From NCBI GenBank assembly GCA_963725665.1, contig CAVRZA010000008.1, positions 1 to 64,000 of the forward strand: 64,000 nt of DNA, in the 5' to 3' direction. This document shows positions 398 through 58,774 of this stretch, in pieces; position 1 is the stretch's first letter; each line of letters starts with the position of its first letter. The notes below the pieces were generated by a model. That model searched no databases and was not told the origin of the DNA. It worked only from the letters and a program-made list of their open reading frames with translations. The stretch comes from an uncultured Actinomycetes bacterium (GTDB lineage: Bacteria; Actinomycetota; Thermoleophilia; UBA2241). The position numbers and the translations under genes were made by a program.

Positions 398-414
398 TGA
401 GACGTAAAAATAGA

Positions 415-16147: not shown

Positions 16148-16150
16148 ACT

Positions 16151-27990: not shown

Positions 27991-29001
27991 ATGATCAGGG
28001 TAGTCGAGTGGGGCACCGGTGAGATGGGACAGGGCCTTCTCAAGTTCATCCTCGACCGGCCCAAGGACATCGAGCTCGTCGGCTGCGTCGTCACCAATCC
28101 GGCCAAAGAAGGCAAGACCGTCGGCGAGCTGCTCGGACGGCCGTGTGGCGTCGTCATGACGAGGGACTACGAGAAGGTGTTAGCGCAGAAACCCGACGTC
28201 GTCTGCATCAACACGCAGTCGAACCTGCACGAGATCACGAGCCAGGTCGAACCGTCCATCACGGCGGGCGCCGACGTGATCTGCATCGCCGAGAAGCTTT
28301 CCTATCCTTGGGCCAGCGACGCCGCCTGGGCCGGCCGCATCGACGCCCTCGCCAAGCAGCACGGCGTCAGCGTTCTGGGTACCGGCATCAATCCCGGCTT
28401 CATGCTCGACGCGCTGATCGTCATGTGGAGCTCGATCTGCCTGCGCGTCGACTCGATCAAGGCGACGCGCGTCAACGACCTCTCACCGTTCGGCCCCACG
28501 GTCATGACCGGTCAAGGCGTAGGCACCACGGTCGAGCAGTTCGAGAAGGGCGTCGCCGACGGCAGCATCGTCGGCCACATCGGCTTTCCCGAGTCGATCG
28601 GCCTCATCGCCAGGGCGCTGGGCTGGAAGATCGACAGGGTCGAGGAGACGCGCGAGCCGATCGTCACGAGCGTCGAGCGCTCCACGCCGCACGTGCACGT
28701 GGCCCCCGGCGACGTCGCCGGCTGTCGCCACATCGGCAAGGGCTACGTGGGCGACGAGCTCAAGATCGAGCTCATCCACCCGCAGCAGATCCACCCCGAG
28801 CTCGAGGGCCAGGAGACCGGCGACTACATCGAGATCCACGGCGATCCCGACGTCAACATGGCCAACAAGCCCGAGATCCCGGGCGGTAAGGGCACCTACG
28901 CAAGCACCGGCAACTACATCCCGCTCATGAAGGCCGCCCCCGCCGGCATGCTCACCGTCGTCGACATGCCGTTGCCGCGCTTCCTCACTCCCACCGTCTG
29001 A
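27991..29001 (+). CDS. ord: 2,4-diaminopentanoate dehydrogenase
   Basis: WGTGEMG Rossmann motif, LGTGINPGF, RVNDLSPFGPTVM..QGVG, GHIGFPES, LIHPQQIHPE, KPEIPGGKGT; operon context. Confidence 0.9.
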   Translation: MIRVVEWGTGEMGQGLLKFILDRPKDIELVGCVVTNPAKEGKTVGELLGRPCGVVMTRDYEKVLAQKPDVVCINTQSNLHEITSQVEPSITAGADVICIAEKLSYPWASDAAWAGRIDALAKQHGVSVLGTGINPGFMLDALIVMWSSICLRVDSIKATRVNDLSPFGPTVMTGQGVGTTVEQFEKGVADGSIVGHIGFPESIGLIARALGWKIDRVEETREPIVTSVERSTPHVHVAPGDVAGCRHIGKGYVGDELKIELIHPQQIHPELEGQETGDYIEIHGDPDVNMANKPEIPGGKGTYASTGNYIPLMKAAPAGMLTVVDMPLPRFLTPTV

Positions 29002-29013
29002 AGGCGGCCGGCC

Positions 29014-29346
29014 ATGAGTGACGCAGCACGCGTACAAACCGGCGACTGGGTCGAGGTCGAACGGACCATTCTCGACCCCTCGCAGCGTTCCAAGAACCTG
29101 CCGCCGGAGACGGCGGAGAAGCCCCTGCTCATGTGGGTGAAGGGTTTCGCCCTGGCCGACGGCGCCCTCGGCGATGAGATGACCGTCGAGACGATGACGG
29201 GACGCCACGTGAGCGGCAGACTCTCCGCCGTGAACCCGGGCTACTTCCACACCTTCGGCAACCCGATCCCCGAGCTCGCGCACGTGGGCAAGGACCTGCG
29301 CGAACGACTGTCCGCCTATCGTGAGACCGAGAAGGGTGGTGCGTGA
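29014..29346 (+). CDS. ortA: 2-amino-4-oxopentanoate thiolase, alpha subunit
   Basis: GDWVEV, PLLMWVKG, ETMTGR, NPGYFHTFGNPIPEL. Confidence 0.9.
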   Translation: MSDAARVQTGDWVEVERTILDPSQRSKNLPPETAEKPLLMWVKGFALADGALGDEMTVETMTGRHVSGRLSAVNPGYFHTFGNPIPELAHVGKDLRERLSAYRETEKGGA

Positions 29347-30758
29347 TGGCCACCCGTTTCGATGAGATCATGGGGCGCCGCGGCGAGATCATGCGCGGCG
29401 CCCTCGGCATGGACTACAGCCGCTTCGAGCGCAGTCCGGTCGCCTTCGACTACGAGGCGATGATGGCCGACCACGGCTACACGCTCGACGACATCAAGCG
29501 CATCCAGGCCGCGGCCGGCGTGGGCGACACCCCGCTGCTCGAGCTGCGCAACATGACCGACCTGGTGCGCTCGATCTCGGAGCCCGGCAGGGGGGCGCGC
29601 ATCTTCGTCAAGGACGAGGCCGCCAACCTCGCCGGCGCCTTCAAGGACCGCCGCGCCTCTATCTCGATTCACACGGCCAAAGAGAAGGGCTACGAGGGAG
29701 TGATCGCGGCGACGTCGGGCAACTACGGCGCCGCCGTCGCCAGCCAGGCGGCGCGCTACGGGCTCAAGTGCATCATCTGCCAGGAGACCTACGACAGCCG
29801 CAAGGTCGGTCAGCCCGAGATCGTCGAGAAGGCGCGCATCTGCGAGGCCTACGGTGCCGAGGTCGTGCAGATGACGGTCGGCCCCGAGCTCTTCTTCCAC
29901 ATGCTCGAGCTCCTCGACGAGACCGGCTACTTCGCCGCCTCGCTCTACTCCTCGTTCGGCGTCTCGGGTATCGAGACCCTCGGGCTCGAGATCGCCAACG
30001 AGATGAAGGAGCGCACCGGCGCCTACCCGACCGCTGTGGTCGTCACGCACGCCGGCGGCGGCAACACGACAGGCACGGCTCGCGGCCTCAAGCGCGCCGG
30101 GGCCAGCGAGACGGAGATCGTGAGCGCCTCGGTCGACCTCTCCGGCCTGCACATGGCCTCCGACCGCGACTTCAACCGCAAGAGCTTCACCACGGGGCAC
30201 ACCGGCTTCGGCGTGCCCTTCGCCACCTGGCCCGACAGGGCCGACGTGCCGCGCAACGCGGCGCGTCCGCTGCGCTACATGGACCGCTACCTCACCGTGA
30301 CCCAGGGCGAGGTGTTCTACGTGACCGAGGCGCTCGTCAAGCTCGAGGGCCTCGAGCGCGGGCCGGCCGGCAACACGGCCATGGCCGTGGCCGTCTCGCT
30401 GGCCCGCGAGCTGCCTCGCGAGGCTACGATCGTCGTGCAGGAGACGGAGTACACCGGCGCCGGCAAGCACCACTGGGCGCAGCTCAACTTCGCCAAGGAG
30501 ATGGGTGTCGAGGTGCGCCGCGGCGACCCGCTCGAGAACAAGCCCGGAGAGGTGATCGTCATCCCGGAGCGGCCGGAGCAGATCCAGGCGAAGGACTTCG
30601 ACCTGGCGCGCATGCGCAAGAGTTACGTGCGCAACGCGCTCAAGGCCGCGCCCGAGGGTTATGCGCCGACCGCCGACGACCTGGCCTTCCTGGCCGCCGA
30701 CACCAACAGCGACGTGGCCACGGTGGACGGCATGGTCCGCGAGCTGGCGGAGACCTAG
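29343..30758 (+). CDS. ortB: 2-amino-4-oxopentanoate thiolase, beta subunit (PLP)
   Basis: KDEAANLAGAFKDRRA, ATSGNYGAAVAS, FNRKSFTTGHTGFG, VQETEYTGAGKH. Confidence 0.92.
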   Translation: MMATRFDEIMGRRGEIMRGALGMDYSRFERSPVAFDYEAMMADHGYTLDDIKRIQAAAGVGDTPLLELRNMTDLVRSISEPGRGARIFVKDEAANLAGAFKDRRASISIHTAKEKGYEGVIAATSGNYGAAVASQAARYGLKCIICQETYDSRKVGQPEIVEKARICEAYGAEVVQMTVGPELFFHMLELLDETGYFAASLYSSFGVSGIETLGLEIANEMKERTGAYPTAVVVTHAGGGNTTGTARGLKRAGASETEIVSASVDLSGLHMASDRDFNRKSFTTGHTGFGVPFATWPDRADVPRNAARPLRYMDRYLTVTQGEVFYVTEALVKLEGLERGPAGNTAMAVAVSLARELPREATIVVQETEYTGAGKHHWAQLNFAKEMGVEVRRGDPLENKPGEVIVIPERPEQIQAKDFDLARMRKSYVRNALKAAPEGYAPTADDLAFLAADTNSDVATVDGMVRELAET

Positions 30759-30760
30759 CG

Positions 30761-31129
30761 ATGGCCCGCGAAGACACCTACCTGGAGTGGCGGGGGCACC
30801 TGGCGGGCCTCGACGACGAAGAGCTCGAGGCCCGCTTCTGGGCGCTCGTGGGCGAGATCGTCGATCCGCTGGTCGAGCTCGCGCGCACGCACACCTCACC
30901 CTCGATCGAGCGCTCCGTGCTCATGCGCATGGGCGTCGACTCGCGCACCTGCATGGCGGTCGTGACGGAGGTCGACAACCGCGGCCTCCTCGGTCACGGC
31001 GCCGGCCACGTGGTGCTCCACTGCGCGACCGAGTGGGGCATCAACGTGCGTGAGGCGGCGGTCCGCCTGGCCGCCGGCGAGGGCTGGGAGACGGTCGCGG
31101 CGCGCTGGGGGGTGGCGAGCAATGTCTGA
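30761..31129 (+). CDS. oraS: D-ornithine 4,5-aminomutase, alpha subunit
   Basis: EELEARFW, HTSPSIERSVLMRMG, LLGHGAGH (3' part of track ORF 29768). Confidence 0.9.
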   Translation: MAREDTYLEWRGHLAGLDDEELEARFWALVGEIVDPLVELARTHTSPSIERSVLMRMGVDSRTCMAVVTEVDNRGLLGHGAGHVVLHCATEWGINVREAAVRLAAGEGWETVAARWGVASNV

Positions 31130-33380
31130 CGACCAGCTCGCCAGCGACGCCCAGCGCGCCGCCCACGACGCGCTGCCGCTCTCGCCCGATGAGAAGCTCG
31201 ACGTCGTCGAGCTTCTCAAGGACATCGAGCACTACCGCCCGCGGCGCAAGGGCTGGCACTGGCGCGAGCAAGTGCCGCAGCAGCGCATCGGCCCGTTCGA
31301 GTACCGGCAGACGTCCAAGCCGCTCGAGCGCAGCGTGCCGCTGCCCTCGGCGCACTACTTCGGCGACATCGATCCGCAGCCCGACTGCGTGGTGACCACC
31401 GAGATCGCCTCGGGCCGCTTCGAGGACGACATCAGACGCATGCGCATGGCCGCCTGGCACGGCGCCGACCACATGATGGTCATCCGCACCGCCGGCCAGA
31501 GCCACATGGACGGCCTCCTCGAGGGCACGCCTGAGGGCGTCGGCGGCATCGCCGTCACGCGCAAGCAGGTGCGCGCCACGCGCAAGGCCCTCGACCTCGT
31601 CGAGGACGAGGTCGGTCGCCCGATCAACTTCCACTCCTACGTGAGCGGGGTGGCCGGCCCCGAGATCGCCGTCATGTTCGCCGAGGAGGGCGTCAACGGA
31701 GCCCACCAGGACCCGCAATACAACGTCCTCTACCGCAACATCAACATGTACCGCTCGTTCGTCGACGCCGCCGTGGCCAAGAAGGTCATGGCAAGCGTGG
31801 GTATGGCGCAGATCGACGGCGCCCACAACGCCAACGCCACGGCGCGCGAGGCCTGGAAGGTCATGCCCGAGCTGCTCGTGCAGCACGCCATCAACTGCGC
31901 CTACTCGGTGGCCGTCGGCATGCCCAAAGAGGACATCTGCCTCTCGACAGTGCCGCCCGACGCGCCGCCGGCGCCCAAGATCCGCCTCGACCTGCCCTAC
32001 GCCATCGCCCTGCGCGACCTCTTCGAGGGCTACAAGATGCGCGCCCAGCAGAACACGCGCTACATCGAGTCCTGCGGCCGCGAGGCGACCGTCACGCACG
32101 TGCTCGACCTGCTGATCTCGCGCCTGACCTCGGCCGACATCCAGTCGACGATCACGCCCGATGAAGGGCGCAACGTGCCCTGGCACTACAACAACGTGCA
32201 CGCTGTCAACACGGCCCGCCAGGCGCTCGTCGGCATGGACGGTCTGCGCGACATCGTCACGGTCGACCCCGAGAACGCGGAGCTCAAGGCGCAGGTACGT
32301 GAGCTCAAGGAACGGGCGGTGCTCTTCCTCGAGCACATGATCGCGGACGGCGGCTACTTCGCCTCCGTCGAGCAGGCCTACTTCGTCGACTCCGGGCTGT
32401 ACCCGGAGACCAACGACGACGGCATCGCGCGCAAGGCCGACGGCGGTGTGGCGGCGGGATCGATCGTCGAGCGCGCCGACGACTACCTGGCGCCGGTCTG
32501 CCACCACTTCGGCGCGAACCACCTGCCCCAGGGTCTTGTGAAGCCCTGCGACCTGATCGGCGGCTGCACGCTCTGCGACGGTGAGAAGGTCCCCTTCATC
32601 GACGAGCTCGACCCCGAGGACAACGTCAACGTGCGCCTCGAGCGCACGCGGGCGCTGCGCGAGAAGGGCCTTATCAAGCCCGAGGTGGAGTGGGCGGCCG
32701 ACGGCTGGGTGGTCGTCACCCTCATGCTCCCGGCAGCCGAACGCGTGGCCGAGTTCGCCGCCCTCGAGTTCGGCAAGGCGATGAACCTGCAGGACTGCGA
32801 GGTCATCCACAAGCAGGTCCTGCACCCTGCCGAGGGCACGCTGATCGAGCTCAAAGGGCGGCTCGACGTGACCGTCGATCCGGCGACCCTCGTCATCCCC
32901 GAGAAGCCGGAGGTGCTCTCGCCCGAGGAGGTGCGCGCCTGGGTGGCCGAGCATGGCCTTAAGGTGATCGGCGCCACAGTAGGCTCCGACGAGCACTCAG
33001 TCGGCATGCAGGAGATCCTCGACATCAAGCACGGCGGGCTCGAGGCGTTCGGCGTCGAGTGCTACTACCTGGGCACCTCGGTGCCGGTCGAGAAGGCCAT
33101 CGACGCCGCGATCGAGCACGCCGCCGCCGCCATACTGATCTCGACCATCATCACTCACGGCGACGTGCACCGCCTGAACATGCAGAAGCTCAACGATCTC
33201 TGCGTGGAGAAGGGCGTGCGTGACCGCTTCGTGCTGGTCGGCGGCGGCACGCAGGTGGCCAACGAGGAAGCCGTCGAGTGCGGTATGGATGCCGGCTTCG
33301 GCCGCGGCACCAAGGGCATCGACGTGGGATCGTTCATCGTCAAGGAGCTGCGCCGGCGCGAGGCGGGAGGCGAAGCCTGA
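31122..33380 (+). CDS. oraE: D-ornithine 4,5-aminomutase, beta subunit (AdoCbl and PLP)
   Basis: EIASGRFEDDIRRMRMAAWHGADH, HQDPQYNVLYRN, DEHSVG cobalamin motif, DIKHGGLE PLP lysine. Confidence 0.95.
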   Translation: MSDDQLASDAQRAAHDALPLSPDEKLDVVELLKDIEHYRPRRKGWHWREQVPQQRIGPFEYRQTSKPLERSVPLPSAHYFGDIDPQPDCVVTTEIASGRFEDDIRRMRMAAWHGADHMMVIRTAGQSHMDGLLEGTPEGVGGIAVTRKQVRATRKALDLVEDEVGRPINFHSYVSGVAGPEIAVMFAEEGVNGAHQDPQYNVLYRNINMYRSFVDAAVAKKVMASVGMAQIDGAHNANATAREAWKVMPELLVQHAINCAYSVAVGMPKEDICLSTVPPDAPPAPKIRLDLPYAIALRDLFEGYKMRAQQNTRYIESCGREATVTHVLDLLISRLTSADIQSTITPDEGRNVPWHYNNVHAVNTARQALVGMDGLRDIVTVDPENAELKAQVRELKERAVLFLEHMIADGGYFASVEQAYFVDSGLYPETNDDGIARKADGGVAAGSIVERADDYLAPVCHHFGANHLPQGLVKPCDLIGGCTLCDGEKVPFIDELDPEDNVNVRLERTRALREKGLIKPEVEWAADGWVVVTLMLPAAERVAEFAALEFGKAMNLQDCEVIHKQVLHPAEGTLIELKGRLDVTVDPATLVIPEKPEVLSPEEVRAWVAEHGLKVIGATVGSDEHSVGMQEILDIKHGGLEAFGVECYYLGTSVPVEKAIDAAIEHAAAAILISTIITHGDVHRLNMQKLNDLCVEKGVRDRFVLVGGGTQVANEEAVECGMDAGFGRGTKGIDVGSFIVKELRRREAGGEA

Positions 33381-33448
33381 GCGCCTCGCGCGCACACGGC
33401 GGCGCGCCTCGCAGGCCCGGCGGTGACGAGCCGCCGGGCCGCACGCCG

Positions 33449-34822
33449 GTGATCGACTCGTCGGGGCGGACGTGTGATGCCGCGCGCCCCGTCGACGCCC
33501 TCGTGGCCGAGATCGGCTCGACGACGACCGTCGTCTCGGCCTTCGACGGCCTACAGGGGGACGCGCCGGCGGCGCCGGCGCTCCTTGGCCAGGGCGTCGC
33601 CGCGACGACGGTCGGCGACGGCGACGTCACGCTCGGTGTGAATCAGGCGCGCGCGGCGCTCGAGGCCCGTTCCGGGCCGCTGGCGCCGCGCGCCATCCTC
33701 GCTACGAGCTCCGCCGCCGGCGGCCTGCGCATGACGGTGCACGGTCTCACGCAGCGCATGACGGCCATGGCTGCGCGCGAGGCGGCCCTCGGCGCCGGCG
33801 CGGTCGTGAAGTACCAAACGGCCGGCAGGCTGCGCGAGGGCGACATCGAGCGCATCGCGCAGGAGCGTCCGAACCTCATCCTGCTCGCCGGTGGGGTCGA
33901 GGGCGGCGACGTCGAGACCGTACTCGCCAACGCGCGCCTGCTGGCGCGGCTGCCCACGCGGCCCAACGTCGTCTTCGGTGGCAACTCCGAGGTGCGCGAC
34001 GAGGTGCGCGCGCTGCTCGAGGAGGCCGGCTTCAAGGTGAGGACGACGCCGAACGTGTATCCGGCCGTCGACGAGCTCGACATCGTGCCGGCGCGGGCGG
34101 TCATCCACGACGCCTTCGAGGAGCACATCACGCACGCCCCGGGCATGGAGCGCATCGTCGACCTCGTCACGGGACCTATCCTGCCCACGCCCGGCGCGGT
34201 GCTGCTGGCGGTGGAGCGTCTCGCCGAGGAGCTCGGCGACCTGGTCGTCATCGACGTCGGCGGGGCGACCACCGACGTGCACTCCGTCACCGACGGCAGC
34301 CCCGATCTCGCCGCCCTGCAGACGGAGCCACAGCCGCACAGCAAGCGCACCGTCGAGGGCGACCTGGGCACGTTCGTGAGCGCGCGCCACGTCGTCGACC
34401 TGCTGCCGGCGGCCGAACGGCCGGCGGCTCTGCCGCCGGCGCTGCCGACGACGGCCGATGAGATCGACGCAGCGCGCACCCTCGCTCGCGCCGCGGCCGT
34501 CACGGCCGTGCAGCGGCACGCCGGCGCTCTCGTGCACCTCTACACGCCTACCGGACGCAAGACGGTGGCGCGCGGCCGTGACCTCACGGCTTGCCGTTGG
34601 GTGATCGGCACCGGCGGCGCCCTGACGAGATTGCCGGGCGGGGAGGAGGTGCTCGCGTCGACGCGCGCGTCGACGGGCGGCCCCTCGGAGAGGCTCCTGC
34701 CGCCCGCCGACGCGCGCGTCGCCCTCGACGGCGACTACATCTTCGCCTGCTGCGGCGCGCTGCTGGCGCGCTTCAGCGCCGACCGGGTGGTCGCGCTCAT
34801 GCGGCACAGCCTCGGCTGCTGA
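33449..34822 (+). CDS. Aminomutase reactivating factor (GlmL/MutL family)
   Basis: VAEIGSTTT, ATSSAAGGLRM, DVGGATTDVHS, KRTVEGDLG, IGTGGAL; start uncertain. Confidence 0.85.
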   Translation: MIDSSGRTCDAARPVDALVAEIGSTTTVVSAFDGLQGDAPAAPALLGQGVAATTVGDGDVTLGVNQARAALEARSGPLAPRAILATSSAAGGLRMTVHGLTQRMTAMAAREAALGAGAVVKYQTAGRLREGDIERIAQERPNLILLAGGVEGGDVETVLANARLLARLPTRPNVVFGGNSEVRDEVRALLEEAGFKVRTTPNVYPAVDELDIVPARAVIHDAFEEHITHAPGMERIVDLVTGPILPTPGAVLLAVERLAEELGDLVVIDVGGATTDVHSVTDGSPDLAALQTEPQPHSKRTVEGDLGTFVSARHVVDLLPAAERPAALPPALPTTADEIDAARTLARAAAVTAVQRHAGALVHLYTPTGRKTVARGRDLTACRWVIGTGGALTRLPGGEEVLASTRASTGGPSERLLPPADARVALDGDYIFACCGALLARFSADRVVALMRHSLGC

Positions 34823-35015
34823 AGGAGCCTGGGCCAGACCCCGTGTAGCCTCTCCCGCGTCGGTGGGGAATGCAGGAGGCAGGCGATAGGCCCTGGGGCG
34901 CACGGTAGCAGGCTTCGGTCCCGTTGTACGGGCCCAGACGACGCGGCAGGGCACCACGAGCCCTCCGCGACCGCGCCTCCCAGCCGCTTCGCAAGACGAC
35001 GGGAGGAAGGGCGAG

Positions 35016-35918
35016 ATGGACGAGATGGAGCGCTCCGCTGAGGGCAAGACGATACTCATCACCGGTGCGACGTCGGGTATCGGCAGAGCCACCGCCCTCG
35101 CCCTCGCGGCTCGCCGGCCGCACTTGGTCATCCTGGCTAGAGACCCGAAACGCGGCGAGGAGGTGGCGGCCGCGGCTCGTCGGGCGGGGGCCGCAGACGC
35201 CGAATTGCTCCGCTGCGATGTGAGCCTGATGGAGTCGGTGCGCGCGGCTGCGGCGGAGTTCGCCCGCCGCCACGCCGTCCTTGACGTACTCATCAACAAC
35301 GCCGCAGTCTTCACCGCCCATCGCGAGGTGACCGCGGAGGGGCACGAGCGCATGCTCGCCACGAACTACCTCGGCCCGTTTCTGCTGACCAACCTCCTGG
35401 CCGATCGCCTCGCCGCCGCCGCTCCCTCACGCGTTATCATGGTGACCGCCCCGGCGACGACCGCACCCCACGTGGACGACCTCGAGAGCGCGGGCCGCTT
35501 CCGGCCGACGCTGGCCTTCGGTCGCTCGAAGGCCGCCGAGCTCCTCTTCAGCTACGCGCTGGCACGACGTCTCGGGCCTCGCAGCGTGGCCGTTTGCGCG
35601 TACCATCCCGGGGTCACACAGACCACCCTGCTGAAGAACGGGCCGCTTGCGATGAGAGCACTGGGGGCGGTCATGAACCTCAGGGCCCAGACAGCCGAGC
35701 AGGCCTCCCGGGGTCTCGTCGAGCTTTCCCTTTCGCTGGGGATCGAGCGGCTCGCCGGTGGGCTCGTGCATGACGGTAAGGCGATCAAGGCGCCCTTCGC
35801 CGATGATGGCGAGCTGCAGGAACGACTCTGGGCGGCGAGCGAGCGACTCGTGGGGATGATCGAGCCGGACGCGACGAAGGACGCGCGTGCGGATGACCAC
35901 AGGCGACTCTCTAGATAA
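35016..35918 (+). CDS. SDR, retinol-dehydrogenase-like
   Basis: TGATSGIG, INNAA, ATNYLGPFLLT; the catalytic Tyr appears replaced (FGRSK). Confidence 0.85.
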   Translation: MDEMERSAEGKTILITGATSGIGRATALALAARRPHLVILARDPKRGEEVAAAARRAGAADAELLRCDVSLMESVRAAAAEFARRHAVLDVLINNAAVFTAHREVTAEGHERMLATNYLGPFLLTNLLADRLAAAAPSRVIMVTAPATTAPHVDDLESAGRFRPTLAFGRSKAAELLFSYALARRLGPRSVAVCAYHPGVTQTTLLKNGPLAMRALGAVMNLRAQTAEQASRGLVELSLSLGIERLAGGLVHDGKAIKAPFADDGELQERLWAASERLVGMIEPDATKDARADDHRRLSR

Positions 35919-36056
35919 GCAGACCGGCAGGAGCGAGCAGACCCAGCATCCCGCGCTCGCTCCTTTCACGCCCCAGGGCGCGACTGGTTCGGGCGGGCGT
36001 TCGTGGAGCCTACGCCCGCGCATGGCTCTGAGAGCTAGGGCGTGGGAGTCAACTGC

Positions 36057-36251
36057 TTAGGATGCTGCTGCGCCGGATCCCTTGGAATCGCCCAACTGTT
36101 CGACCGCGAGCGTCAGCTTCTCGATCCTGTCGGCGATAAGCGCCAAGAACAGGCGAGTGGCTTGGGCGTCGGTGGTGCGGCCGCTCAGGATAGAGCTCTC
36201 GATAGCATCCACGAGGTCTTGCGTCGCCGCGTTCATGCCGGCAACCTGCAT
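36057..36251 (-). CDS. Small hypothetical protein (64 aa, helical)
   Basis: GAGGAG SD 6 nt before ATG; protein-like composition in an otherwise empty gap. Confidence 0.5.
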   Translation of the reverse strand: MQVAGMNAATQDLVDAIESSILSGRTTDAQATRLFLALIADRIEKLTLAVEQLGDSKGSGAAAS

Positions 36252-36481
36252 TCTTCACTCCTCTCGAGCGTGACAGAAGTAGAGGAAGACTAACGAACGG
36301 AGCTGGGGCCCGCTAGCCGAGCGTGCCTGCCTGAGGGTGGAGTCCTGGCGCGACGGCGGACGCGACGGCGGGGTCTTGCTCGTCGGTGCCGCACACGCAC
36401 TCCTCTCCCGTGGTCGCGCGCTGCGGGAAGACGTCGCATCATCCAGGCATCAAGGGTGCGGCGAGGGGTATCCTGACTCTC

Positions 36482-39400
36482 GTGGTCGCGACGACGCCTC
36501 ATCCCGCACTCGCTCCCTTCACGCCACAGGTGCGTGACTGGTTCGCGCGAGCGTTCGCGGAGCCGACGCCCGCGCAGATCCAGGCGTGGCCGGCCATCGC
36601 CACGGGCGAGCACGCGCTCATCGCCGCCCCGACCGGGTCGGGCAAGACCCTCGCCGCCTTCCTCTGGGCGCTCGATCGGCTCGTGGCCGATCCCTCGCCG
36701 GCTGACCGGCGCAAGCGCGTCACTCGTCTCGTCTACGTCTCCCCGCTCAAGGCGCTGGGCTACGACGTGGAGAAGAACCTTCGTGCGCCGCTGCGCGGCA
36801 TCGGCGCCGACGTGAGGGTCGCTATCCGCACCGGCGACACCCCGCAGGTCGAGCGCCGCGAGATGCTGCGCGAGCCGCCTGACGTGCTCATCACGACGCC
36901 CGAGTCGCTCTATCTCATGCTCACCTCGCAGGCGCGGCGACTCTTCTCCGGCACGGAGTGGGTGATCGTCGACGAGATCCACGCCGTCGCGCAGACCAAG
37001 CGCGGCGCGCATCTCGCCGTGACGCTCGAGCGACTCGTCGAGGAGGCCGGTCGCGACGTGCAGCGCATCGGCCTCTCGGCGACGCAGAAGCCGCTCGAGG
37101 AGGTGGCCCGCTTCCTGGTCGGACCGCAGCGCTCATGCAGGGTCGTCGACGCCGGCCTGCGCAAGGAGCTCGACCTGCGCATCCACGTGCCGGTGGAGTC
37201 GATGGTCGAGCCCGACGAGGTCGATCTCGGGCTCGACCAGTCGACAGGCAAGGAGGCGACGCGGCGCTCGATCTGGCCGGCGATCTATCCGGAGCTCTTG
37301 CGGCTCGTGCGTGAGCATCGTTCCACGCTCGTCTTCGTCAACAACCGTCGCGCCGCGGAACGCATCGCGCTGCGGCTGAACGAGCTGGCCGAGCGGGAAG
37401 AGGAGGGCGACGCAGGGAAGAGAGCGTCGGGTCCGATCGCGCGCGCCCATCACGGCTCCCTCGCACGGGAGGAGCGGCTGCAGATCGAGGACCAGCTCAA
37501 GGCCGGCGTGCTGCCCTGTCTCGTGGCGACCTCGTCGCTCGAGTTGGGCATCGACATGGGCGCCGTCGACCTGGTGATCCAGGTCGAGTCGCCCAAGTCA
37601 GTGACGCGCGGGCTGCAGCGCATCGGGCGGGCCGGGCACGGTGTCGGCGATGTGTCCAAGGGGAGGATCTTCCCCAAGTTCCGCGCCGACCTGCTCGAGT
37701 GCGCCGTGGTCGCCAAACGCATGCGCGAGGGTGAGATCGAGACGACCGTCGTCCCGCGCAACCCCCTCGACGTGCTGGCGCAACAGATCGTGGCCATCGC
37801 CGCGACGGCGGGCGACGAGGGCGTGCCGGTCGACGACCTGCACGCCCTCGTCGCCCGCACCTACACCTACGCCGAGCTCGAGCGGCGCCAGCTTGAGAAC
37901 GTGCTCGACATGCTCGACGGTCGCTACCCCTCGGACGAGTTCGGCGAGCTGCGGGCGCGGATCGTGTGGGACAGGCTCTCGGGCACGATCCGCGCCCGCA
38001 AGGGCGCCCTCGGCCTCGCGGTCGCCAACGCGGGCACGATCCCCGACCGCGGACTCTTCTCGGTGAACCTGCCCGACGGGCGTCGTGTCGGCGAGCTCGA
38101 CGAGGAGATGGTCTACGAGGCGCGGGCGGGTCAGACGTTCCTGCTCGGCGCCTCGTCGTGGCGCATCGAGGAGATCACCCGCGACCGCGTCATCGTTTCT
38201 CCTGCTCCGGGCGTGCCGGCCGCCGTGCCCTTCTGGCACGGCGACGGGATCGGGCGCCCGCGCGAGCTGGGCGAGGCGATCGGTGCCTTCGCGCGCTGGG
38301 CCGTCGCCCGCCAGCCCGAGGAGCTCGAGCGCGACTACGACCTCGATTCGCGGGCGGCGCGCAATCTGGTCGAGTTCCTGCGCGAGCAGGAGCAGGCGAC
38401 CCGCGTCGTGCCCAGCGACCACACGGTCGTCGTGGAGCGCTTCCGCGACGAGATCGGCGACTGGCGCCTGTGCGTGCTCTCGCCCTACGGCGGGCGCGTG
38501 CACAGCGCCTGGGCGCTGGCCCTAAGCGGCCGTCTGCGCGAGCGCTTCGGGCTCGAGGCAGGCGCCATCTGGTCCGACGACGGCATCATCGTGCACCTGC
38601 CCGACGCGGACGAACCGCCGGGCACCGACCTGGTGCTCATCGACCCCGACCAGGTCGAGGATCTGGTCGTCGCCGAGCTCGGCGGCAGCGCCCTGTTCGG
38701 GGCCCGCTTCCGCGAGAACGCCGCCCGGGCGCTGCTCATCCCGCGCGCCTACCCGGGCAGGCGCACCCCGCTCTGGCAGCAGCGCCTGAAGTCGCAGTCG
38801 TTGCTCGAGGTAGCGCGCCGCTACGGGCAGTTCCCGATCGTGCTCGAGACCTACCGCGAGTGCCTGCGCGACGTGCTCGACGTACCCGGGCTGGTCGAGA
38901 TCCTGCGCCGGATCCACCGCCGCGAGCTGTCCCTCGTCGAAGTAGAGACCGCCACCGCGTCGCCGTTCGCCTCCTCGCTCCTCTTCGACTACGTGGCGAC
39001 CTACATGTACGAGGGTGAGACGCCGAAGGCCGAGCGGCGGGCGGCGGCGCTCGCCCTCGATCGTGAGCTGCTGCGCGAGCTGCTCGGCCAGGAGGAGCTG
39101 CGCGAGCTCATCGACGCCGGCGCGCTGGAGGAGGTCGAGGACAACCTGCAGCGGCGATCTGAACGCACGCGGGCGGCGTCGCCCGACGAGCTGCACGATG
39201 TGCTGCGGCGGCTCGGCGACCTGACCCTCGAGGAGGTGCGCGGGCGCGTTGTCGCGCTGGAGGAGGCCGAGGCGTGGCTCGACGGGCTCGCCCGCGAGCG
39301 GCGCGCTGTGCGCGTCCGGCTCGCGGGCGAGCTCCGCTGGATCGCGACCGAGGACGCCGGCCTGATGCGTGACGCGCTCGGTGCCGTGCCCCCGTCGGGC

Positions 39401-40964
39401 CTGCCCGAGGCGTTCCTCACCGACGTGCCCGACGCCCTCGCGCGTCTCGCGCGTCGCTACGCTCGTACGCATGGGCCCTTCGAGTCGGCCGAGCTGCGTG
39501 CGCGGTACGGCATCGAGCTCACCCCCGTGCTCGAGAGCCTCGAGCGCGAGGGGGAGCTCGTTCGCGGCGAGCTGCGGCCCGGCGGCAGCCGGCGCGAGTG
39601 GTGCGACCCCGAGGTGCTCCGTCGACTGCGCCGGGCCTCGCTCGCTGTGTTGCGGCGCGAGATCGAGCCCGCGGAGCGGCGCGTGCTCGCACGGTTCGCG
39701 CCCGAGTGGCAGGGGATCGATCGGCGTTCGTCGGCAGGCGCCGGTGTCGACCGGCTGCGCGAGGTACTCGTGCCGCTGCAGGGAGTGCCGCTCTCGCCGG
39801 AGGTGTGGGAGCGCGACGTGCTGCCGCGGCGCGTCGGCGCCTACTCGCCCGCCTGGCTCGACCAGTTGTGTGCGAGTGGGGAGGTCGTCTGGGTCGGCGC
39901 CGGGCCGGTCGGCAGACGCGGCGGCAAGGTCGCGCTCTACTTCCGTGAGGACGTCGCCTTGCTCGGGCCCCCGCCGATGCCCGAGACGGCAGCGGTGACT
40001 GGCGAGGTGCACGACCGTATCCGCGAACGCCTGCGGCGCGCCCCCTGCTTCTTCACCGACTTCCTGGTCGAGCTCAGCGGTGTCACGACGCAGGAGCTCC
40101 AGGACGCGCTCTGGGATCTGGTCTGGTCGGGGGAGGTGACCAACGACGCCTTCGCGCCGCTGCGCTCGGCGAAGCTGGCGCCGCCTTCGGTGCCCGAGCG
40201 ACAGCGCTCGCTGCACGCCGCGCAACGGCGGCGGCGTTTCGGCGCGCGGCCGACCGGAGCCATGCCGCAGGTCCAGGGACGCTGGTCGCCGACCGAGGCC
40301 CTGTTCGCCGGCGCGCCGTGCGGAGCCGGCAGCGCGCCGGCGCGCCTGGGCCGAGCTCTTGCTCGAGCGTCACGGCATCGTGACGCGCGAGCTCGTGCGC
40401 GCCGAGGGCATTGCCGGCGGCTTCGCCGCCCTCTACGATGCCCTCACCTCGCTGGAGACGCTCGGCGTCGCGCGCCGGGGCTACTTCGTCGAGGGCCTGG
40501 GCGGCGCGCAGTTCGCGCTGCCCGCGGCCGTCGAGCGGCTGCGCGGGCAGCGCGACGACGAGCGCGTCGCCCTCGTCCTGGCCGCCGCCGACCCCGCGCA
40601 GGTCTACGGCGCCGCGCTGCGCTGGCCGCAGCTCTCTGACAGAAGCCCTGGGCGCCACGGCGGCGCCTACGTCGTGCAGGTCGGCGGCGATCCCGTCCTC
40701 TTCGTCGATAGAGGCGGCAGGGGCCTGCAGACGCTGGTCGACGCCGACGACGGGCGCGTCGACCAGGCGCTGCAGGCACTCGTCGAGAGCGTTGCGCACG
40801 GCCGGGTGCGTCGGCTCGCCGTCGAGAGAATCGACGGCGAGCCGGCCGTCGCCTCTCCTTTCGCGAACCGCCTCATCGCCCTGGGCTTCCGCGCCGGCCC
40901 GCGCAGGCTCACGCTGGCCGCCGACCACATCGGGGCCACCGCGTCCGATCGCTCCGGGCCGTGA
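36482..40964 (+). CDS. lhr: Full-length Lhr helicase (SF2 core plus C-terminal domain); frameshift near 40319
   Basis: APTGSGKT, SPLKAL, DEIH, HHGSL, ATSSLELGID, QRIGRAGH, GTIPD; the C-terminal LLERHGIV...RRGYFVEGLGGAQFA is in the next frame. Confidence 0.92.
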
Positions 40965-40993
40965 GCACCAGCCGGCCACCGCTGTGAACGGCG

Positions 40994-41779
40994 ATGCCTG
41001 AGGGCGACACCATCCACTACGCGGCGCGCCGCATCCGCGCCGTCCTCGAGGGTCACGTCCCCGACGAGATCCTCACTACGCACCCCCGCTTCGCGCGCGA
41101 CGAGTGGCCGGAGCGGCTGGCCGGGCGCCGCGTGACCGTCGTCGACGCCGTCGGCAAGCACCTGCTCGTCCGCTTCGAGGGCGGGCCTCGTGATCCATTC
41201 GCACCTGCGCATGCACGGCCGCTGGCGCATCGTTCCGGCCGACGAGCGATGGCGCCGCTCGCGCGGCACCTGGCTGGTGATCAGACGTGGCCAGACGGAG
41301 GTCGTGCAGTCGGGCGGGCCCGTCCTCGAGCTCATCGACTGTCCGCACAAGCCCGGCTCGACCCGAGGCTGACCCAGCTTGGCCCTGACATCGTCGCGCC
41401 CGAGCCCTTCGACGAGGCGCGCTTCTTGCGCCGTCTGCGCGGAGACGACCCCACGCGGCCCATCGGCGATGCGCTGCTCGACCAGCGAACGGTGGCCGGC
41501 ATCGGCAACTTCTGGAAGGTCGAAGGCTGCTTCCTCGCCGGGATCGATCCCGGGCGGCCCGTCGCGGAGGTGAGTGACGAGGAGGCCCGCGCAATCGTCG
41601 CCACGCTGCGGCCACGCATGCAGGCCTCAGCACAGGACGGCCACCAGTCGCGCTTCACGACGATCTACGGGAAGAGCGGCTCCTACTGTCCCCGGTGCGG
41701 CCCTCGAGCGCGGATCGCCGCACGCCACCAGGGTGACGACAACCGCATCACCTACTGGTGCCCGTCGTGCCAGCACTGA
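40994..41779 (+). CDS. nei: Fpg/Nei-family DNA glycosylase (compensating frameshifts ~41185 and ~41345)
   Basis: MPEGDT N-terminus, GKHLL, HSHLRMHGRW (alternate frame), LLDQRTVAGIGN, CPRC...WCPSCQ zinc finger. Confidence 0.9.
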   Translation: MPEGDTIHYAARRIRAVLEGHVPDEILTTHPRFARDEWPERLAGRRVTVVDAVGKHLLVRFEGGPRDPFAPAHARPLAHRSGRRAMAPLARHLAGDQTWPDGGRAVGRARPRAHRLSAQARLDPRLTQLGPDIVAPEPFDEARFLRRLRGDDPTRPIGDALLDQRTVAGIGNFWKVEGCFLAGIDPGRPVAEVSDEEARAIVATLRPRMQASAQDGHQSRFTTIYGKSGSYCPRCGPRARIAARHQGDDNRITYWCPSCQH

Positions 41780-41838
41780 TGCGGGTCGTAAGAGCGGTTC
41801 CTTTTGCCTGCGCCGCCCCTGGGTCACAGCCCCTCGGC

Positions 41839-41887
41839 TTGCACATCCGGGGAGGGCTGCAATACGCTCCTGTATAGGAACTATTCA
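41839..41887 (+). promoter_or_regulatory. Promoter (TTGCAC-N18-TACGCT) with TGTAT-N7-ATTCA palindrome over the predicted start site
   Basis: Direct reading; matches the site upstream of ord. Confidence 0.45.
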
Positions 41888-41955
41888 CCCTGCGTGGCAC
41901 CCGCATCGTGCGACGGGCATGGTCGGAGGCCGGCCGCGGAGAGGCGCGAGGGAAC

Positions 41956-43076
41956 GTGTCGAGAGCAGCGACCATAGTCATCGACCTCGACGCCATCGAG
42001 CGCAACGCGCGCACGTTGGTGGAGCGGCTGCCCGGCATCGACATCACCGGCGTGACCAAGGTCACCTGCGGCGAGCCCGAAGTGGCGCACGCTCTCATCC
42101 GCGGCGGGGTGGCCGCCGATCGGCGATTCCCGTCTGCGCAACCTCACGACGTCTACGCCGCGGCGGCGTCACGGTGCCCGTTTGGCTCATCCGTGCGCCG
42201 CAGCCCGCCGAGGCGCTCGACACGGTGCGGCTCGCCGACGTCTCGCTCAACAGCGAGCTCGAGACCATCGCGGCCCTCGACGCCGCCTGTGCGCGTCTCG
42301 GCGAGCCGCACGAAGTCGTCCTCATGGTCGACGTCGGCGACCTGCGCGAGGGCGTGCTGCCCGACGATTTGCCTCGCCTCGTCGAGCAGGTCCTGGCGCT
42401 GCCGCACGTGCGTCTCGCCGGCATCGGCGTCAACCTGACCTGTTACGGGGCCATCGTGCCCAGTGTCGAGAACATCGGCCAGCTTGTCGCGCTCGCGCGT
42501 GAAGCCGAGGAGGCCACCGGACGCAAGCTCCTCGTCTCGGGCGGCAACTCCGGCAGCCTGCCGCTGGCGCTCTCGGGAGTCATGCCGGATGGCGTCACCA
42601 ACTTGCGCGTCGGCGAGTCCATCCTGCTGGGGTTGAACACGCTGACGCGCGAGCCGCTCATCCCCGAGCTCGCTCTCGACACCTTCACGGTGCGGGCGCC
42701 GGTGATCGAGTGTCTGGTGAAGCCATCGCTGCCCGTGGGCGAGGTCGCCCAAGACGCCTACGGCAACCGGCCCGTTTTCGTTGACCGAGGTCTGCGGCGG
42801 CGGGCCATCTGCCAGGTCGGGCGTCAGGACGTCGTCCCCGAGGGGCTCACGCCGCTCGATCCTCGCGTCGAGGTGCTGGGCGCGTCGAGCGACCATCTCG
42901 TGCTCGACGTCGAGGCGCTCGACGCGCCCCCCGCCCTGGGGAGCAAGATCTCGTTCCGTCCCAGCTACGCCTGCGTACTGCAGGCGATGACGTCGCCGTA
43001 CGTCGAGAAGGTCTTCAGCCGCATGCCTGAGTCGGTCGTGGCGCGGTCAGCCAGTGAGGAGGAAGAAGGAGAGGGC
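41956..43076 (+). CDS. orr: Ornithine racemase-like PLP enzyme (alanine-racemase fold); indels at ~42115-42150; no stop before the next gene
   Basis: GVTKVTCG (PLP Lys), IGDSRL, MVDVGDLREG, GVNLTCYG, SGGNSGS, LRVGESILLG, GASSDHL, MTSPYVEK. Confidence 0.85.
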
Positions 43077-44408
43077 ATGACTGACGGCCGCACGAAGGTG
43101 CTCATCATGGGAGCCGCGGGGCGCGACTTCCACAACTTCAACACGTTCTTCCGCGACAACGAGGACTACGAGGTCGTCGCCTTCACGGCCACGCAGATCC
43201 CCTACATCAACGACCGCAAGTACCCCGCCGAGCTCGCTGGTCGCCTCTATCCCGAGGGCATCCCCATCCACGACGAGTCGGAGATGCCCGAGCTGGTGAA
43301 GAAGCACGACGTCGAGCAGGTCGTGTTCGCCTACAGCGACGTGCGCTACGAGTACGTCATGCACCGCTCGGCGCTGGTGAACGCGCTGGGCGCCGACTTC
43401 CGTCTGCTCGGCCCCGACCACACGATGGTCAAGAGCACGAAGCCGGTGATCGCCGTGTGCGCCGTGCGCACGGGCGCCGGCAAGAGCCAGACCACGCGCA
43501 AGATCCAGGTGCTGCTGCGCGAGGCCGGCAAGAAGGTCGTCAGCATCCGCCATCCCATGCCGTACGGCGACCTCGTCAAGCAGCGCGTGCAGCGCTACGC
43601 GACGGTCGAGGACCTCGCCAGGTACGACTGCACCATCGAGGAGATGGAGGAGTACGAGCCGCACGTCAAGGCCGGCAATGTGATCTACGCCGGCGTCGAC
43701 TACGAGGCCATCGTGCGCGAGGCGGAGAAGGAAGCCGACGTCATCCTCTGGGACGGCGGCAACAACGACTTCAGCTTCTACAAGCCCGACCTGTACATCA
43801 CCGTCGCCGACCCGCATCGCCCCGGCGACGGCCTCGTGTACTACCCCGGCGAGGTCAACCTGCGTCTCGCCGACGTCATCGTGCTCAACAAGATCGACAC
43901 CGCCGACCGCGCCGGCATCGAGGCCGAGCTCGAGGCCGTGCGCTCGGTGAACCCCACGGCTCAGATCGTCATGGGCGCCTCGCCGGTGACGGTCGACGAC
44001 CCGGCTGCGGTCAAGGGCAAGCGCGTGCTCGTGGTCGAGGATGGACCTACACTCACGCACGGCGAGATGAAGTACGGCGCCGGCACCGTGGCCGCCAGGC
44101 AGCTCGGCGCCGCCGAGTTCATCGACCCACGGCCGTTCGCCGTCGGCGAGATCAAGGCGACGTTCGAGAAGTATCCGAACGTCGGCGTGCTGCTGCCGGC
44201 CATGGGCTACTCCGACGAGCAGCTCAAGGATCTCGAAACGACCATCAACACCTCAGGCGCCGACCTGGTCGTCATCGGCACCCCCATGGACCTGCGGCGC
44301 ATCATCGACATCAAACTGCCCGCGGTGCAGGTCAAATACGACCTGCAGGAGATCGGCAGCCCGACGCTGCGCGACATCCTGGTCGAGCGCGGGTTCATAG
44401 CTGTCTGA
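43077..44408 (+). CDS. arcE: COG2403 P-loop protein (cyclic 2,3-diphosphoglycerate synthetase-like; probable arginine synthetase)
   Basis: MGAAGRDFHNFN, FTATQIP, RTGAGKSQTTR, RHPMPYGDL, CTIEEMEEYEPH, WDGGNND, EDGPTLTHG, PAMGY; own SD; function inferred from position between racemase and OTCase. Confidence 0.7.
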   Translation: MTDGRTKVLIMGAAGRDFHNFNTFFRDNEDYEVVAFTATQIPYINDRKYPAELAGRLYPEGIPIHDESEMPELVKKHDVEQVVFAYSDVRYEYVMHRSALVNALGADFRLLGPDHTMVKSTKPVIAVCAVRTGAGKSQTTRKIQVLLREAGKKVVSIRHPMPYGDLVKQRVQRYATVEDLARYDCTIEEMEEYEPHVKAGNVIYAGVDYEAIVREAEKEADVILWDGGNNDFSFYKPDLYITVADPHRPGDGLVYYPGEVNLRLADVIVLNKIDTADRAGIEAELEAVRSVNPTAQIVMGASPVTVDDPAAVKGKRVLVVEDGPTLTHGEMKYGAGTVAARQLGAAEFIDPRPFAVGEIKATFEKYPNVGVLLPAMGYSDEQLKDLETTINTSGADLVVIGTPMDLRRIIDIKLPAVQVKYDLQEIGSPTLRDILVERGFIAV

Positions 44409-44430
44409 TCGCAGGGTTGCGGAAGAAGGC

Positions 44431-44476
44431 GCTCGCGGGCGGGCCGCCGTCACATGACGGCGTCCCGCCCGCGAGC
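44431..44476. terminator. Long GC hairpin after the arcE-like gene
   Basis: GCTCGCGGGCGGG..CGCCGTCA-c-ATGACGGCG..CCCGCCCGCGAGC; no U-tail. Confidence 0.4.
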
Positions 44477-44637
44477 TCTGACGCCCCAGTTTCCTCCCGC
44501 CACCTGCGGTCGCCCCAACGGTTCCCGTTGCCCGCGCTCTGCGCCGACGACCCCCGCCGCCGGGCGGCTCGGAGGCCCCCGATGCGTGACCTGTAGACTA
44601 GCCTGACCATCTGCCACCGATAGCGAAAGAGGGGGCC

Positions 44638-45609
44638 ATGTCGACTCCCGTCTCCGGGCTCGCCGAGCGCGCCGCCGGTCTGGGCCTCAAGGGCACGAGC
44701 TTCCTCACCATGCACCATCACACCCCGGCACAGATCGCCGGCCTGCTCGATCTGGCCGCCGACATCAAGGCGCACCACAAGGGCGGCGTCGCGCCGATGC
44801 TGCTCCAGGGACGCTCTGTGGCCATGATCTTCATGAAGACCTCGACGCGCACGCGCATCTCGTTCGAGGTCGGGATCACCCAGCTCGGGGCCCAGCCGCT
44901 GTTCCTCAACGCCAACGACATCCAGTTGCGCGTGGGCGAGACGATCAAGGACACGGCGCACGTGCTCTCGCGCTACGTCGACGCCATCATGATCCGCACT
45001 TTCGCCCAGAAGGACGTCGAGGACCTGCGCGACGAGGGCTCGATCCCCGTCATCAACGGCCTCACAGACGACTGGCACCCCTGCCAGGCCATGGCCGACC
45101 TGCTCACCATCCGCGAGCACTTCGGCGAGCTCGCTCGGCGGCGGCTTGTTTACGTCGGCGACGGCAACAACGTGGCCCACTCGCTGATGATCGGCGGCGC
45201 CAAGACCGGCATGCGCGTGACCGTCGCCACACCGGCGGACTACCAGCCCAAGGATTGGGTCGTCGCGTGGGCGCGCGAGGACGCCCGGGAGACCGACGCC
45301 ACGATCGATCTCACGACCGACCTGCGCGGCGCCGTGCGCGGGGCCGACGTGATCTACACCGACACCTGGACGAGCATGGGCCAGGAGGCCGAGGCTGCCG
45401 TGCGCGAGCAACGCCTGGCCGACTTCCAGGTCAATGCCGACCTGGTCGTCGAGGCTGGGCCGCAGGTGCGCGTCATGCACTGTCTCCCGGCGCACTGGGG
45501 CAAGGAGATCACCGAAGAGGTCCTCTACGCTCCGCAGTCGATCGTCTTCGACCAGGCCGAGAACCGCCTGCACGCGCAGAAGGCGATCATGGCGGCTCTC
45601 ATCGGGTAG
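44638..45609 (+). CDS. argF: Ornithine carbamoyltransferase
   Basis: KTSTRTR, HPCQAMAD, GDGNNV, YTDTWTSMG, HCLP, DQAENRLH. Confidence 0.95.
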   Translation: MSTPVSGLAERAAGLGLKGTSFLTMHHHTPAQIAGLLDLAADIKAHHKGGVAPMLLQGRSVAMIFMKTSTRTRISFEVGITQLGAQPLFLNANDIQLRVGETIKDTAHVLSRYVDAIMIRTFAQKDVEDLRDEGSIPVINGLTDDWHPCQAMADLLTIREHFGELARRRLVYVGDGNNVAHSLMIGGAKTGMRVTVATPADYQPKDWVVAWAREDARETDATIDLTTDLRGAVRGADVIYTDTWTSMGQEAEAAVREQRLADFQVNADLVVEAGPQVRVMHCLPAHWGKEITEEVLYAPQSIVFDQAENRLHAQKAIMAALIG

Positions 45610-50084: not shown

Positions 50085-50226
50085 CGCGAAGAAGGGGACG
50101 GCTCTTCCATCCTTGGGACGACCACCGCCACGAAAGGGGCGCACACGACCATGGGCAAGATCTCGATGAGCCTGCCTGCTGGGTCGATGTCGCCCAGCGC
50201 GCACAGGCGCGCGATGGGAGGTCCTC

Positions 50227-51780: not shown

Positions 51781-51814
51781 GCCGCTCGCGTCGCAAGGCT
51801 GGCTGTGCGGCGAT

Positions 51815-51890
51815 CCGCCCGCCAGCGAGCCGCCCGCCAGCGAGCCGCCTGCCAGCGAGCCGCCTGCCAGCGAGCCCGTTCGCCAGCGAG
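51815..51890. repeat. Tandem repeat, 15-bp unit CCGCCYGCCAGCGAG x4 plus one degenerate copy
   Basis: Units start at 51815, 51830, 51845, 51860 and 51875. Confidence 0.9.
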
Positions 51891-51925
51891 CTTGCGCGCG
51901 ACAGCGGGGCGGACGACTCCAAGAC

Positions 51926-51937
51926 GAACACTTGTTC
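51926..51937. promoter_or_regulatory. LexA (SOS) box-like site GAACACTTGTTC
   Basis: GAAC-N4-GTTC; exact reverse complement of lexA box 1. Confidence 0.5.
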
Positions 51938-51970
51938 CCGGTCTTTCACCTGAACTTCGTCTCGGGTGGG

Positions 51971-51999
51971 TTGGACTCGGGGCATTAGATTGTGATACT
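51971..51999 (+). promoter_or_regulatory. Sigma70-type promoter upstream of satP
   Basis: TTGGAC-N17-GATACT with a TG extension. Confidence 0.45.
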
Positions 52000-52127
52000 A
52001 GTCGCAAGGCCCGAGCGGCGCGTGGCGCCGTCGTGCCCTGCCCGCCTGCCGGGCCCTCCTCACAGTCGATCGGAGGCGCGGCGCGGGCGCAGGTTGACAG
52101 GCAACATCATTGGGAGGCAGCGCATCG

Positions 52128-58591: not shown

Positions 58592-58668
<77 letters not shown>

Positions 58669-58677
58669 ACACCACGA

Positions 58678-58753: not shown

Positions 58754-58774
58754 CCTGCGTCGCCCAATCAGCGC

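Follow-up and report, generated by a model that had tools for sequence, protein, structure and literature searches.

The stretch of DNA analyzed here, called the window in the following, is the first 64,000 nucleotides of one contig (G000:C8:1-64000) of an uncultured soil or wetland actinobacterium of the class Thermoleophilia, whose closest protein relatives are also labelled Thermoleophilia and whose genome (G000) amounts to 3.73 Mb in 12 contigs with ca 70% G+C. Its central part carries, all on the + strand, a set of genes for the B12-dependent breakdown of ornithine and, further downstream, a triad consisting of an ornithine racemase gene (orr), a gene for a protein of the arginine synthetase (ArcE) family, and an ornithine carbamoyltransferase (OTCase) gene (argF). 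We will argue that, rather probably, both belong to a single gene set for arginine catabolism, as its two halves, and would turn arginine into acetyl-CoA at a high yield. The genes concerned are the following.

27991..29001, + strand: ord, 2,4-diaminopentanoate dehydrogenase (NCBIfam NF040740, 447 bits, cut-off 400; Pfam DAP_DH_C)
29014..29346, + strand: ortA, 2-amino-4-oxopentanoate thiolase subunit A (NF040739, 111.6 bits, cut-off 70; Pfam OrtA)
29343..30758, + strand: ortB, thiolase subunit B, a pyridoxal phosphate (PLP) enzyme (NF040741, 792 bits, cut-off 550)
30761..31129, + strand: oraS, D-ornithine 4,5-aminomutase small subunit (Pfam OAM_alpha, 140.3 bits)
31122..33380, + strand: oraE, B12-dependent D-ornithine 4,5-aminomutase large subunit (NF040743, 1328 bits, cut-off 800)
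33449..34822 (start 33278 or 33449), + strand: or-4, GlmL-like, putative mutase reactivase (Pfam MutL, 458 bits)
41956..43030, + strand: orr, ornithine racemase, interrupted in the assembly (300-residue frame-0 piece, 320.6 bits against racem_Orr, cut-off 480)
43077..44408, + strand: arcE-like gene, arginine synthetase family (COG2403 'predicted GTPase'), 443 residues, 49% identity to a Hyperthermus butylicus homologue
44638..45609, + strand: argF/arcB, ornithine carbamoyltransferase (TIGR00658, 411.9 bits, cut-off 280.85)

Ord, OrtA, OrtB and OraE are all assigned at the equivalog level, and OraS by its Pfam match; the latter is 50% identical to the OraS of locus L127, a metagenome-assembled genome (MAG) of the Spirochaetota. 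Or-4 scores 521.8 bits against NF040744, which is under the cut-off of 600, although this is still its best family and the match covers the full length. The ATG of ord at 27991 is preceded by a ribosome-binding-like stretch, GAGGAGGAG, and oraE starts with the ATG at 31122. An open reading frame (ORF) at 30661-31053 was rejected as oraS; it has no family match and is a spurious overlapping frame. The argF product reaches 297.6 bits against the putrescine carbamoyltransferase model, whose cut-off is 500. A preliminary description of this DNA, made from the letters alone, had placed an ord-ortAB-oraSE-reactivase set about 7 kb upstream of adjacent orr, COG2403 and argF genes. Both parts of this arrangement are borne out, the former at 27991-34822 and the latter at 41956-45609, with a gap of 7.1 kb between or-4 and orr. 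The orr gene is indeed present, but it is not one open frame and contains three indels, which the description had overlooked.

The assignment of the COG2403 gene to ArcE, which had been proposed in the preliminary description, is supported by the comparison with the Hyperthermus butylicus protein (P0299), to which the 49% identity extends over 432 residues. ArcE homologues were compared in the best 80 of 593 genome hits, with full-length identities of 47-66% between the window protein and those of all 80 loci. These are from both archaea and bacteria, among them Desulfurococcales, Ignisphaera, Caldisericia and Brocadia; a Thermococcus locus is absent from the best 80 of the 593 hits and from the named hits, and a search started from a Thermoproteota homologue yielded no protein of the Thermococcales either. 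In the sections of PMC11032458 dealing with homologues of the Thermococcus kodakarensis enzyme TK2200, the holders of ArcE are given as Hyperthermus, Pyrodictium, other Desulfurococcales, Caldisericum and others, and the homologues are described as annotated putative GTPases with a weak resemblance to cyclic 2,3-diphosphoglycerate synthetase (cDPGS). The relatives of the window protein are labelled 'predicted GTPase' by JGI. A Walker-type G-x-G-K-S motif is almost invariant, and no Pfam or NCBIfam model matches the protein, for which only sub-threshold cobW/HypB matches were obtained.

Independent support for the ArcE assignment comes from fusions to OTCase, carbamate kinase and aminotransferase domains. 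Among 28 longer homologues, two carry an OTCase domain, eight an AA_kinase domain (three of these are labelled carbamate kinase by JGI) and ten an Aminotran_3 domain (three labelled ornithine aminotransferase, also by JGI). In P0129, an N-terminal carbamate kinase is fused to the ArcE domain (TIGR00746, 337 bits; NF009007, 314 bits, cut-off 266). No fusion of Orr with ArcE was found among the 28. The fusion proteins recorded are P0129, P0407, P0409 and P0414-P0431, and the ArcE homologue P0238 is interrupted by an intein that contains a LAGLIDADG domain.

The adjacency of orr, arcE and argF is more than chance. Of the 21 loci from the same family, 17 have orr immediately upstream of arcE, and 14 have argF downstream. 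Beside arcE in the other families of the class, orr is found in none of eight loci, and arcE adjoins the carbamate kinase gene arcC and an OTCase gene instead (L052-L055). Over the 80 ArcE loci, arcC is adjacent in 13 and an OTCase gene in eight. Of the 15 same-family loci with long flanks, eight carry ornithine-cluster genes on the side of orr, and L038 (genome G080) and L049 (G122) have ord-ortA-ortB-oraS-oraE-or4-orr-arcE-argF as an unbroken series.

At the level of genomes, we sampled 151 members of the class, 25 of them from the window's own family. The arcE gene is present in 58 of the 151 and in 23 of the 25; arcC accompanies it in 52 of the 58 and an arcA-like gene in four, while only eight genomes of the class sample have arcA-like genes at all. 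Of the 24 class genomes with oraE, 23 also have arcE. In an ArcE tree of 107 sequences, the 16 from the family form a single clade (support 99) with the orr-linked rows basal, and by this topology orr-arcE-argF is the ancestral arrangement in the family. Outside the family, the Spirochaetota MAG (L127) has arcE followed directly by ord-ortA-ortB-oraS-oraE-or4, and in L092 arcE stands beside arcC-otc-orr. These two loci belong to other ArcE clades, and the couplings therefore arose independently. The linkage of arcE to orr, argF and the ornithine cluster, as seen in the preliminary description, is conserved in the family and recurs independently in another phylum.

We now consider the arginine genes in the rest of the genome. 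Family searches agree with the preliminary description in that the window holds no match to the arginine deiminase (ADI) or arginase families; the genome-wide matches lie on other contigs. It had further suggested looking for a carbamate kinase and for a missing arcA in the genome. A carbamate kinase is encoded on contig C4 (G000:C4:415692-416618; 415 bits, above the cut-off), and the best genome match to the arcA model TIGR01078 scores 34.8 bits against a cut-off of 489.1, in a 284-residue protein similar to dimethylarginine dimethylaminohydrolase (DDAH). The best arginase match in the genome has 107 bits (cut-off 227.6), and of its ten ureohydrolase-family matches three reach the agmatinase cut-off and none that of arginase. 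The argG and argH genes are adjacent on contig C4, and argC-argJ-argB are found on contig C2 (C2:163793-167031), where there is no OTCase-like hit. The genome also encodes an agmatine deiminase cluster and the lysine aminomutases KamA and KamDE.

Two further loci are of note in this connection. At G000:C3:86289-88616 (L154), an intact gene for a 284-residue DDAH-like amidinotransferase is found next to an OTCase gene (TIGR00658, 349 bits) and a cyclase-family gene, possibly an alternative arginine or citrulline module. The genes at G000:C11:212000-216000 (L155), two of them OTCase-like and one DDAH/ADI-like, are all broken up into pieces that lie in different frames.

From the gene identities and their linkage, we infer the activities and the co-regulation of the two halves, with the following route. 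ArcE is predicted to convert arginine, ADP and Pi to citrulline, NH3 and ATP, and ArgF/ArcB would phosphorolyse the citrulline to L-ornithine and carbamoyl phosphate, from which the carbamate kinase of contig C4 would gain a second ATP. Next, Orr would turn L-ornithine into D-ornithine, and OraSE (with B12 and PLP), Ord and OrtAB, encoded at 27991-33380, would take D-ornithine to acetyl-CoA and alanine, with NAD(P)H. What favours the catabolic direction in the window's genome is the presence of argG and argH, together with the ancestral linkage to orr and the proximity of the ornithine cluster.

The oxidative ornithine degradation cluster of Stickland clostridia was reportedly first described by Fonknechten et al. 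in 2009. The same gene set (oraSE, ord, ortAB, the GlmL-like or-4 and, interrupted in this assembly, orr) is found in the window. Here, however, the host is a high-G+C actinobacterium that possesses aerobic oxidases, orr stands apart from the cluster, in the triad with arcE and argF, and arginine is predicted to enter via ArcE and not via arginine deiminase. With the arginine deiminase (arcABC) pathway, the proposed route shares the overall outcome (arginine yields ornithine, CO2 and ammonia), the intermediates citrulline and carbamoyl phosphate, and the ATP gain at carbamate kinase, whereas the first step is predicted to be the ATP-yielding ArcE instead of the hydrolytic ArcA. Compared to the cDPGS of Methanothermus fervidus, the window ArcE has a distantly related P-loop fold and a wholly different gene neighbourhood.

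The arginine synthetase pathway of T. kodakarensis (ArcE TK2200, ArcB, ArcC; PMC11032458) uses an enzyme of the same family, as judged by full-length homology to the homologues in the named genera, with like fold relatives (LpxK and, distantly, cDPGS). The OTCase gene next door, a carbamate kinase in the genome and the absence of a canonical arcA are also shared. On the other hand, the host of the window is bacterial and not archaeal, its arcC is unlinked, and its arcE is flanked by the ornithine racemase gene and linked to the B12 ornithine cluster. In view of this linkage, ornithine is predicted to be oxidized further, and not to be an end product or a proline precursor. Among the literature listed since 2024, titles and abstract openings show only the two papers on the T. 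kodakarensis enzyme and one database paper to deal with arginine synthetase. The main texts of the former two contain no mention of racemase, aminomutase or Stickland, although the supplementary gene-cluster figures and trees of PMC11032458 may contain related clusters, and no paper was found in which an ornithine racemase or aminomutase occurs together with either diphosphoglycerate synthetase or COG2403. The comparison suggests that known modules are combined here in a way that has no earlier description in the literature searched, in line with what the preliminary description had supposed.

Several observations weigh against the catabolic route. The carbamate kinase gene lies outside the cluster, on contig C4, where it adjoins a different OTCase paralogue, and two DDAH/ADI-superfamily genes, one of them in pieces, stand beside other OTCase paralogues and are possible alternative, putative arginine-to-citrulline enzymes. 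As many as 34 of the 35 arcE-positive class genomes outside the family are without oraE, and the coupling of arcE to the ornithine cluster is therefore not general. The comparison of ArcE covers homologues from genera named in PMC11032458. With no OTCase-like hit on contig C2, which holds argCJB, the window argF may also serve biosynthesis. In the genomes G002 and G014, which are without argG, arcE heads an argC-argJ-argB operon. Finally, three indels in the 1.1 kb of orr are more than would be expected from the frameshift-like splits in this assembly, of which there is roughly one in every 10 kb of coding sequence.

It is highly improbable that the 443-residue protein is a cDPGS with no relation to arginine. 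This name is given by NCBI to several proteins that are 83-90% identical to it ('cyclic 2,3-diphosphoglycerate synthase'), and it is one of only two names that the protein atlas clusters bear, the other being 'putative GTPase'. The predicted model (pLDDT 93.9, pTM 0.91) also has its best structural match in the PDB with the M. fervidus cDPGS (8oru, 8ork, 9sxb; Foldseek E 1e-16), but the aligned structures are only 14-15% identical with TM-scores of 0.40-0.46. LpxK (4EHY), which the structural comparison in PMC11032458 superimposes on the model of TK2200p, follows at rank 3 with E 3.7e-7 and a TM-score of 0.64 on the target. At the sequence level, the window protein reaches 35.7 bits against the solved cDPGS, in a local match of 110 residues (215-325), and a family profile 77.7 bits. 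The neighbours and fusion partners, moreover, are OTCase, carbamate kinase, Orr and class-III aminotransferase. Judged by homology, the product of 43077-44408 thus belongs to the ArcE family and is no cDPGS. As to what this enzyme does in the window's genome, arcE and argF could instead be mainly biosynthetic, running from ornithine via citrulline to arginine at the expense of ATP and free ammonia, with a neighbourhood that merely reflects a shared ornithine node. We consider this quite unlikely, although the family itself contains a context of that kind, in two small genomes:

G002:C1:1470600-1488000: arcE-argC-argJ-argB locus (L050)
G014:C1:989600-1007000: arcE-argC-argJ-argB locus (L051)

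The arcE gene at the head of these operons is 80-82% identical to that of the window, and argG was not found in 9 of the 25 family genomes, including G002, G014 and G026, each of which is about 98% complete. A biosynthetic use of ArcE in G002 and G014 is likely from this gene context, which suggests that ArcE replaces argininosuccinate synthetase and lyase in their arginine biosynthesis. The reaction is reversible, and a biosynthetic role is raised in the treatment of the pathway in PMC11032458; where argG and argH are present, as they are, side by side, in the window's genome, the same source expects ArcE to serve degradation alone. The window argF is, in addition, the best-scoring OTCase of its genome. 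However, the ArcE proteins of G002, G014 and G026 form a nested subclade in the tree, so that the arg-operon context is derived and the orr linkage basal. A racemase making D-ornithine has no place in arginine synthesis, and the fusions to carbamate kinase and to class-III aminotransferases labelled ornithine aminotransferase point to catabolism. Of the catabolic route drawn in the preliminary description, the gene set, the linkage and the genome complement thus stand, while its direction, which we infer for the window's genome, has the reverse context in the argG-less relatives against it.

The other alternative is that the route is broken in this strain. In that case, orr would be a real pseudogene and the breakdown would halt at L-ornithine, to be excreted or used otherwise unless a paralogue substitutes. 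Compared with 12 relatives, in all of which orr is an intact, single open frame, the window gene has extra bases near 42118 and 42152, and one base is missing near 43017/43018 according to an alignment of the 3' DNA. In three-frame translation, the N-terminal 53 codons are read in one frame, the next 11 in a second and the remainder in the third. The N-terminal part, which is also matched with a relative's Orr as the query, contains a VTK motif that is likely to be the putative PLP-lysine site. Because of the missing base, the conserved TGA stop (43028-43030) is no longer in the orr frame, which continues into arcE. Metagenome contigs of relatives that are about 92% identical, and are not the source reads, lack the two 5' extra bases, being two bases shorter than the window across 41969-42202 (X1 record 1, X3 record 17). 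No indels at all are seen in the ca 9 kb of ord, ortA, ortB, oraS, oraE, or-4, arcE and argF, and the broken OTCase-like and ADI-like genes at C11:212-216 kb form a second decayed-looking locus. Since the three indels in 1.1 kb exceed the genome-wide rate, real decay of orr is possible. We nevertheless hold a pseudogene to be unlikely, if less so than a biosynthetic role, and read the indels as probable assembly errors because 9 of 82 genes look frameshifted in G000 in a comparison with its close relative G056 (400 kb sampled). These splits point to an indel-prone assembly, and the neighbouring helicase gene lhr is split as well. No in-frame stops interrupt orr other than through the indels, and its mean identity to the relatives (61%) is about that among the relatives themselves (67%, range 55-89%). 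There are also Orr-like paralogues at C11:283873-285051 (327 bits against racem_Orr) and C4:440516-441643; if the indels are real, the catabolic route would depend for its racemase step on that at G000:C11:283873-285051.

The paralogue on contig C4 is part of a locus (G000:C4:440516-443171, L151) in which an Orr-like racemase gene is divergent from a DokD-like ornithine/lysine decarboxylase gene, an arrangement like that of the Salmonella OrnR operon as presented in PMC13397332. In the window, the 45 bases that separate the stop of orr from the start of arcE (43031-43076) belong to a spacer that is strongly conserved across six genomes, GATCGTGGCGCGGAGGGACC...GGAGTGAGCATG, and may be a translational or regulatory element. 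An Rfam scan of the 27-46 kb part of the window gave no family, riboswitches included, and promoter-like and terminator-like sites are not more frequent than in shuffled sequence. Among the sequencing runs searched, the share of the sampled words that a run contains does not exceed 0.17, and no RNA run is among those with such words.

The 7.1 kb that separate the two halves are occupied by three genes identified by Pfam.

35016-35918, + strand: short-chain dehydrogenase/reductase (SDR)
36386-40964, + strand: Lhr helicase, with a frame change near 40320-40356
40994-41779, + strand: Nei/Fpg glycosylase

The frame change in lhr falls in a GC-rich repeated stretch that five relatives read through. 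Between or-4 and orr, some relatives have no gap, others ca 1.5 kb, and others again Lhr, alone or together with Nei, and a counterpart of the SDR at E 1e-8 or better was not found in the loci of 20 relatives. As the content of this one site varies among relatives, the block is a lineage-variable insertion; on this comparison, SDR-Lhr-Nei came in later and is outside the pathway.

The remainder of the window contains a number of unrelated features. The first 2 kb of its start (1-4000) have 40% G+C, compared to ca 70% elsewhere, and this low-G+C part, with a 587-residue ORF without Pfam match (1202-2965, - strand) and a peroxiredoxin fragment, could be of foreign origin or the chimeric end of a contig. 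Genes for glycine-cleavage P subunits are found at 4799-7803, and histidine-utilization genes at 50170-55255 (histidine ammonia-lyase, an amidohydrolase that is likely imidazolonepropionase, and formiminotransferase). There are also the RNase P RNA, a cluster of three tRNAs beside a phage-integrase fragment, and a c-di-GMP-II riboswitch on the - strand (15769-16149, 58592-58848, 58938-59309, 61678-61765).

The preliminary description had considered the organism apparently anaerobic. This is not supported by the genome, which encodes a heme-copper oxidase subunit I and cytochrome bd, and the host is therefore no obligate anaerobe. A wider proposal, which we put forward tentatively and with slightly more doubt than belief, is that this family of Thermoleophilia joined both pathways in an ancestral block ord-ortAB-oraSE-or4-orr-arcE-argF in hosts that can also respire O2, that the coupling in the Spirochaetota arose independently, and that in the argG-less subclade ArcE, placed at the head of argCJB, would run in the arginine-forming direction.

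Arginine synthetase was described only in 2024, and in a hyperthermophilic archaeon only. If the proposed route is correct, up to three substrate-level ATP would be gained per arginine (from ArcE, carbamate kinase and acetyl-CoA), and ArcE would be tied to the complete oxidation of the ornithine skeleton. Arginine breakdown, otherwise a two-ATP conversion with ornithine as its end point, would then become a full carbon route, fermentative or respiratory. One reversible enzyme would, moreover, have opposite physiological roles in sister genomes, and those with arcE in an argG-less arginine operon constitute a natural test of the biosynthetic role. For the abundant uncultured Thermoleophilia of peat, wetland and sediment, the route would help to explain the use of protein-derived arginine.

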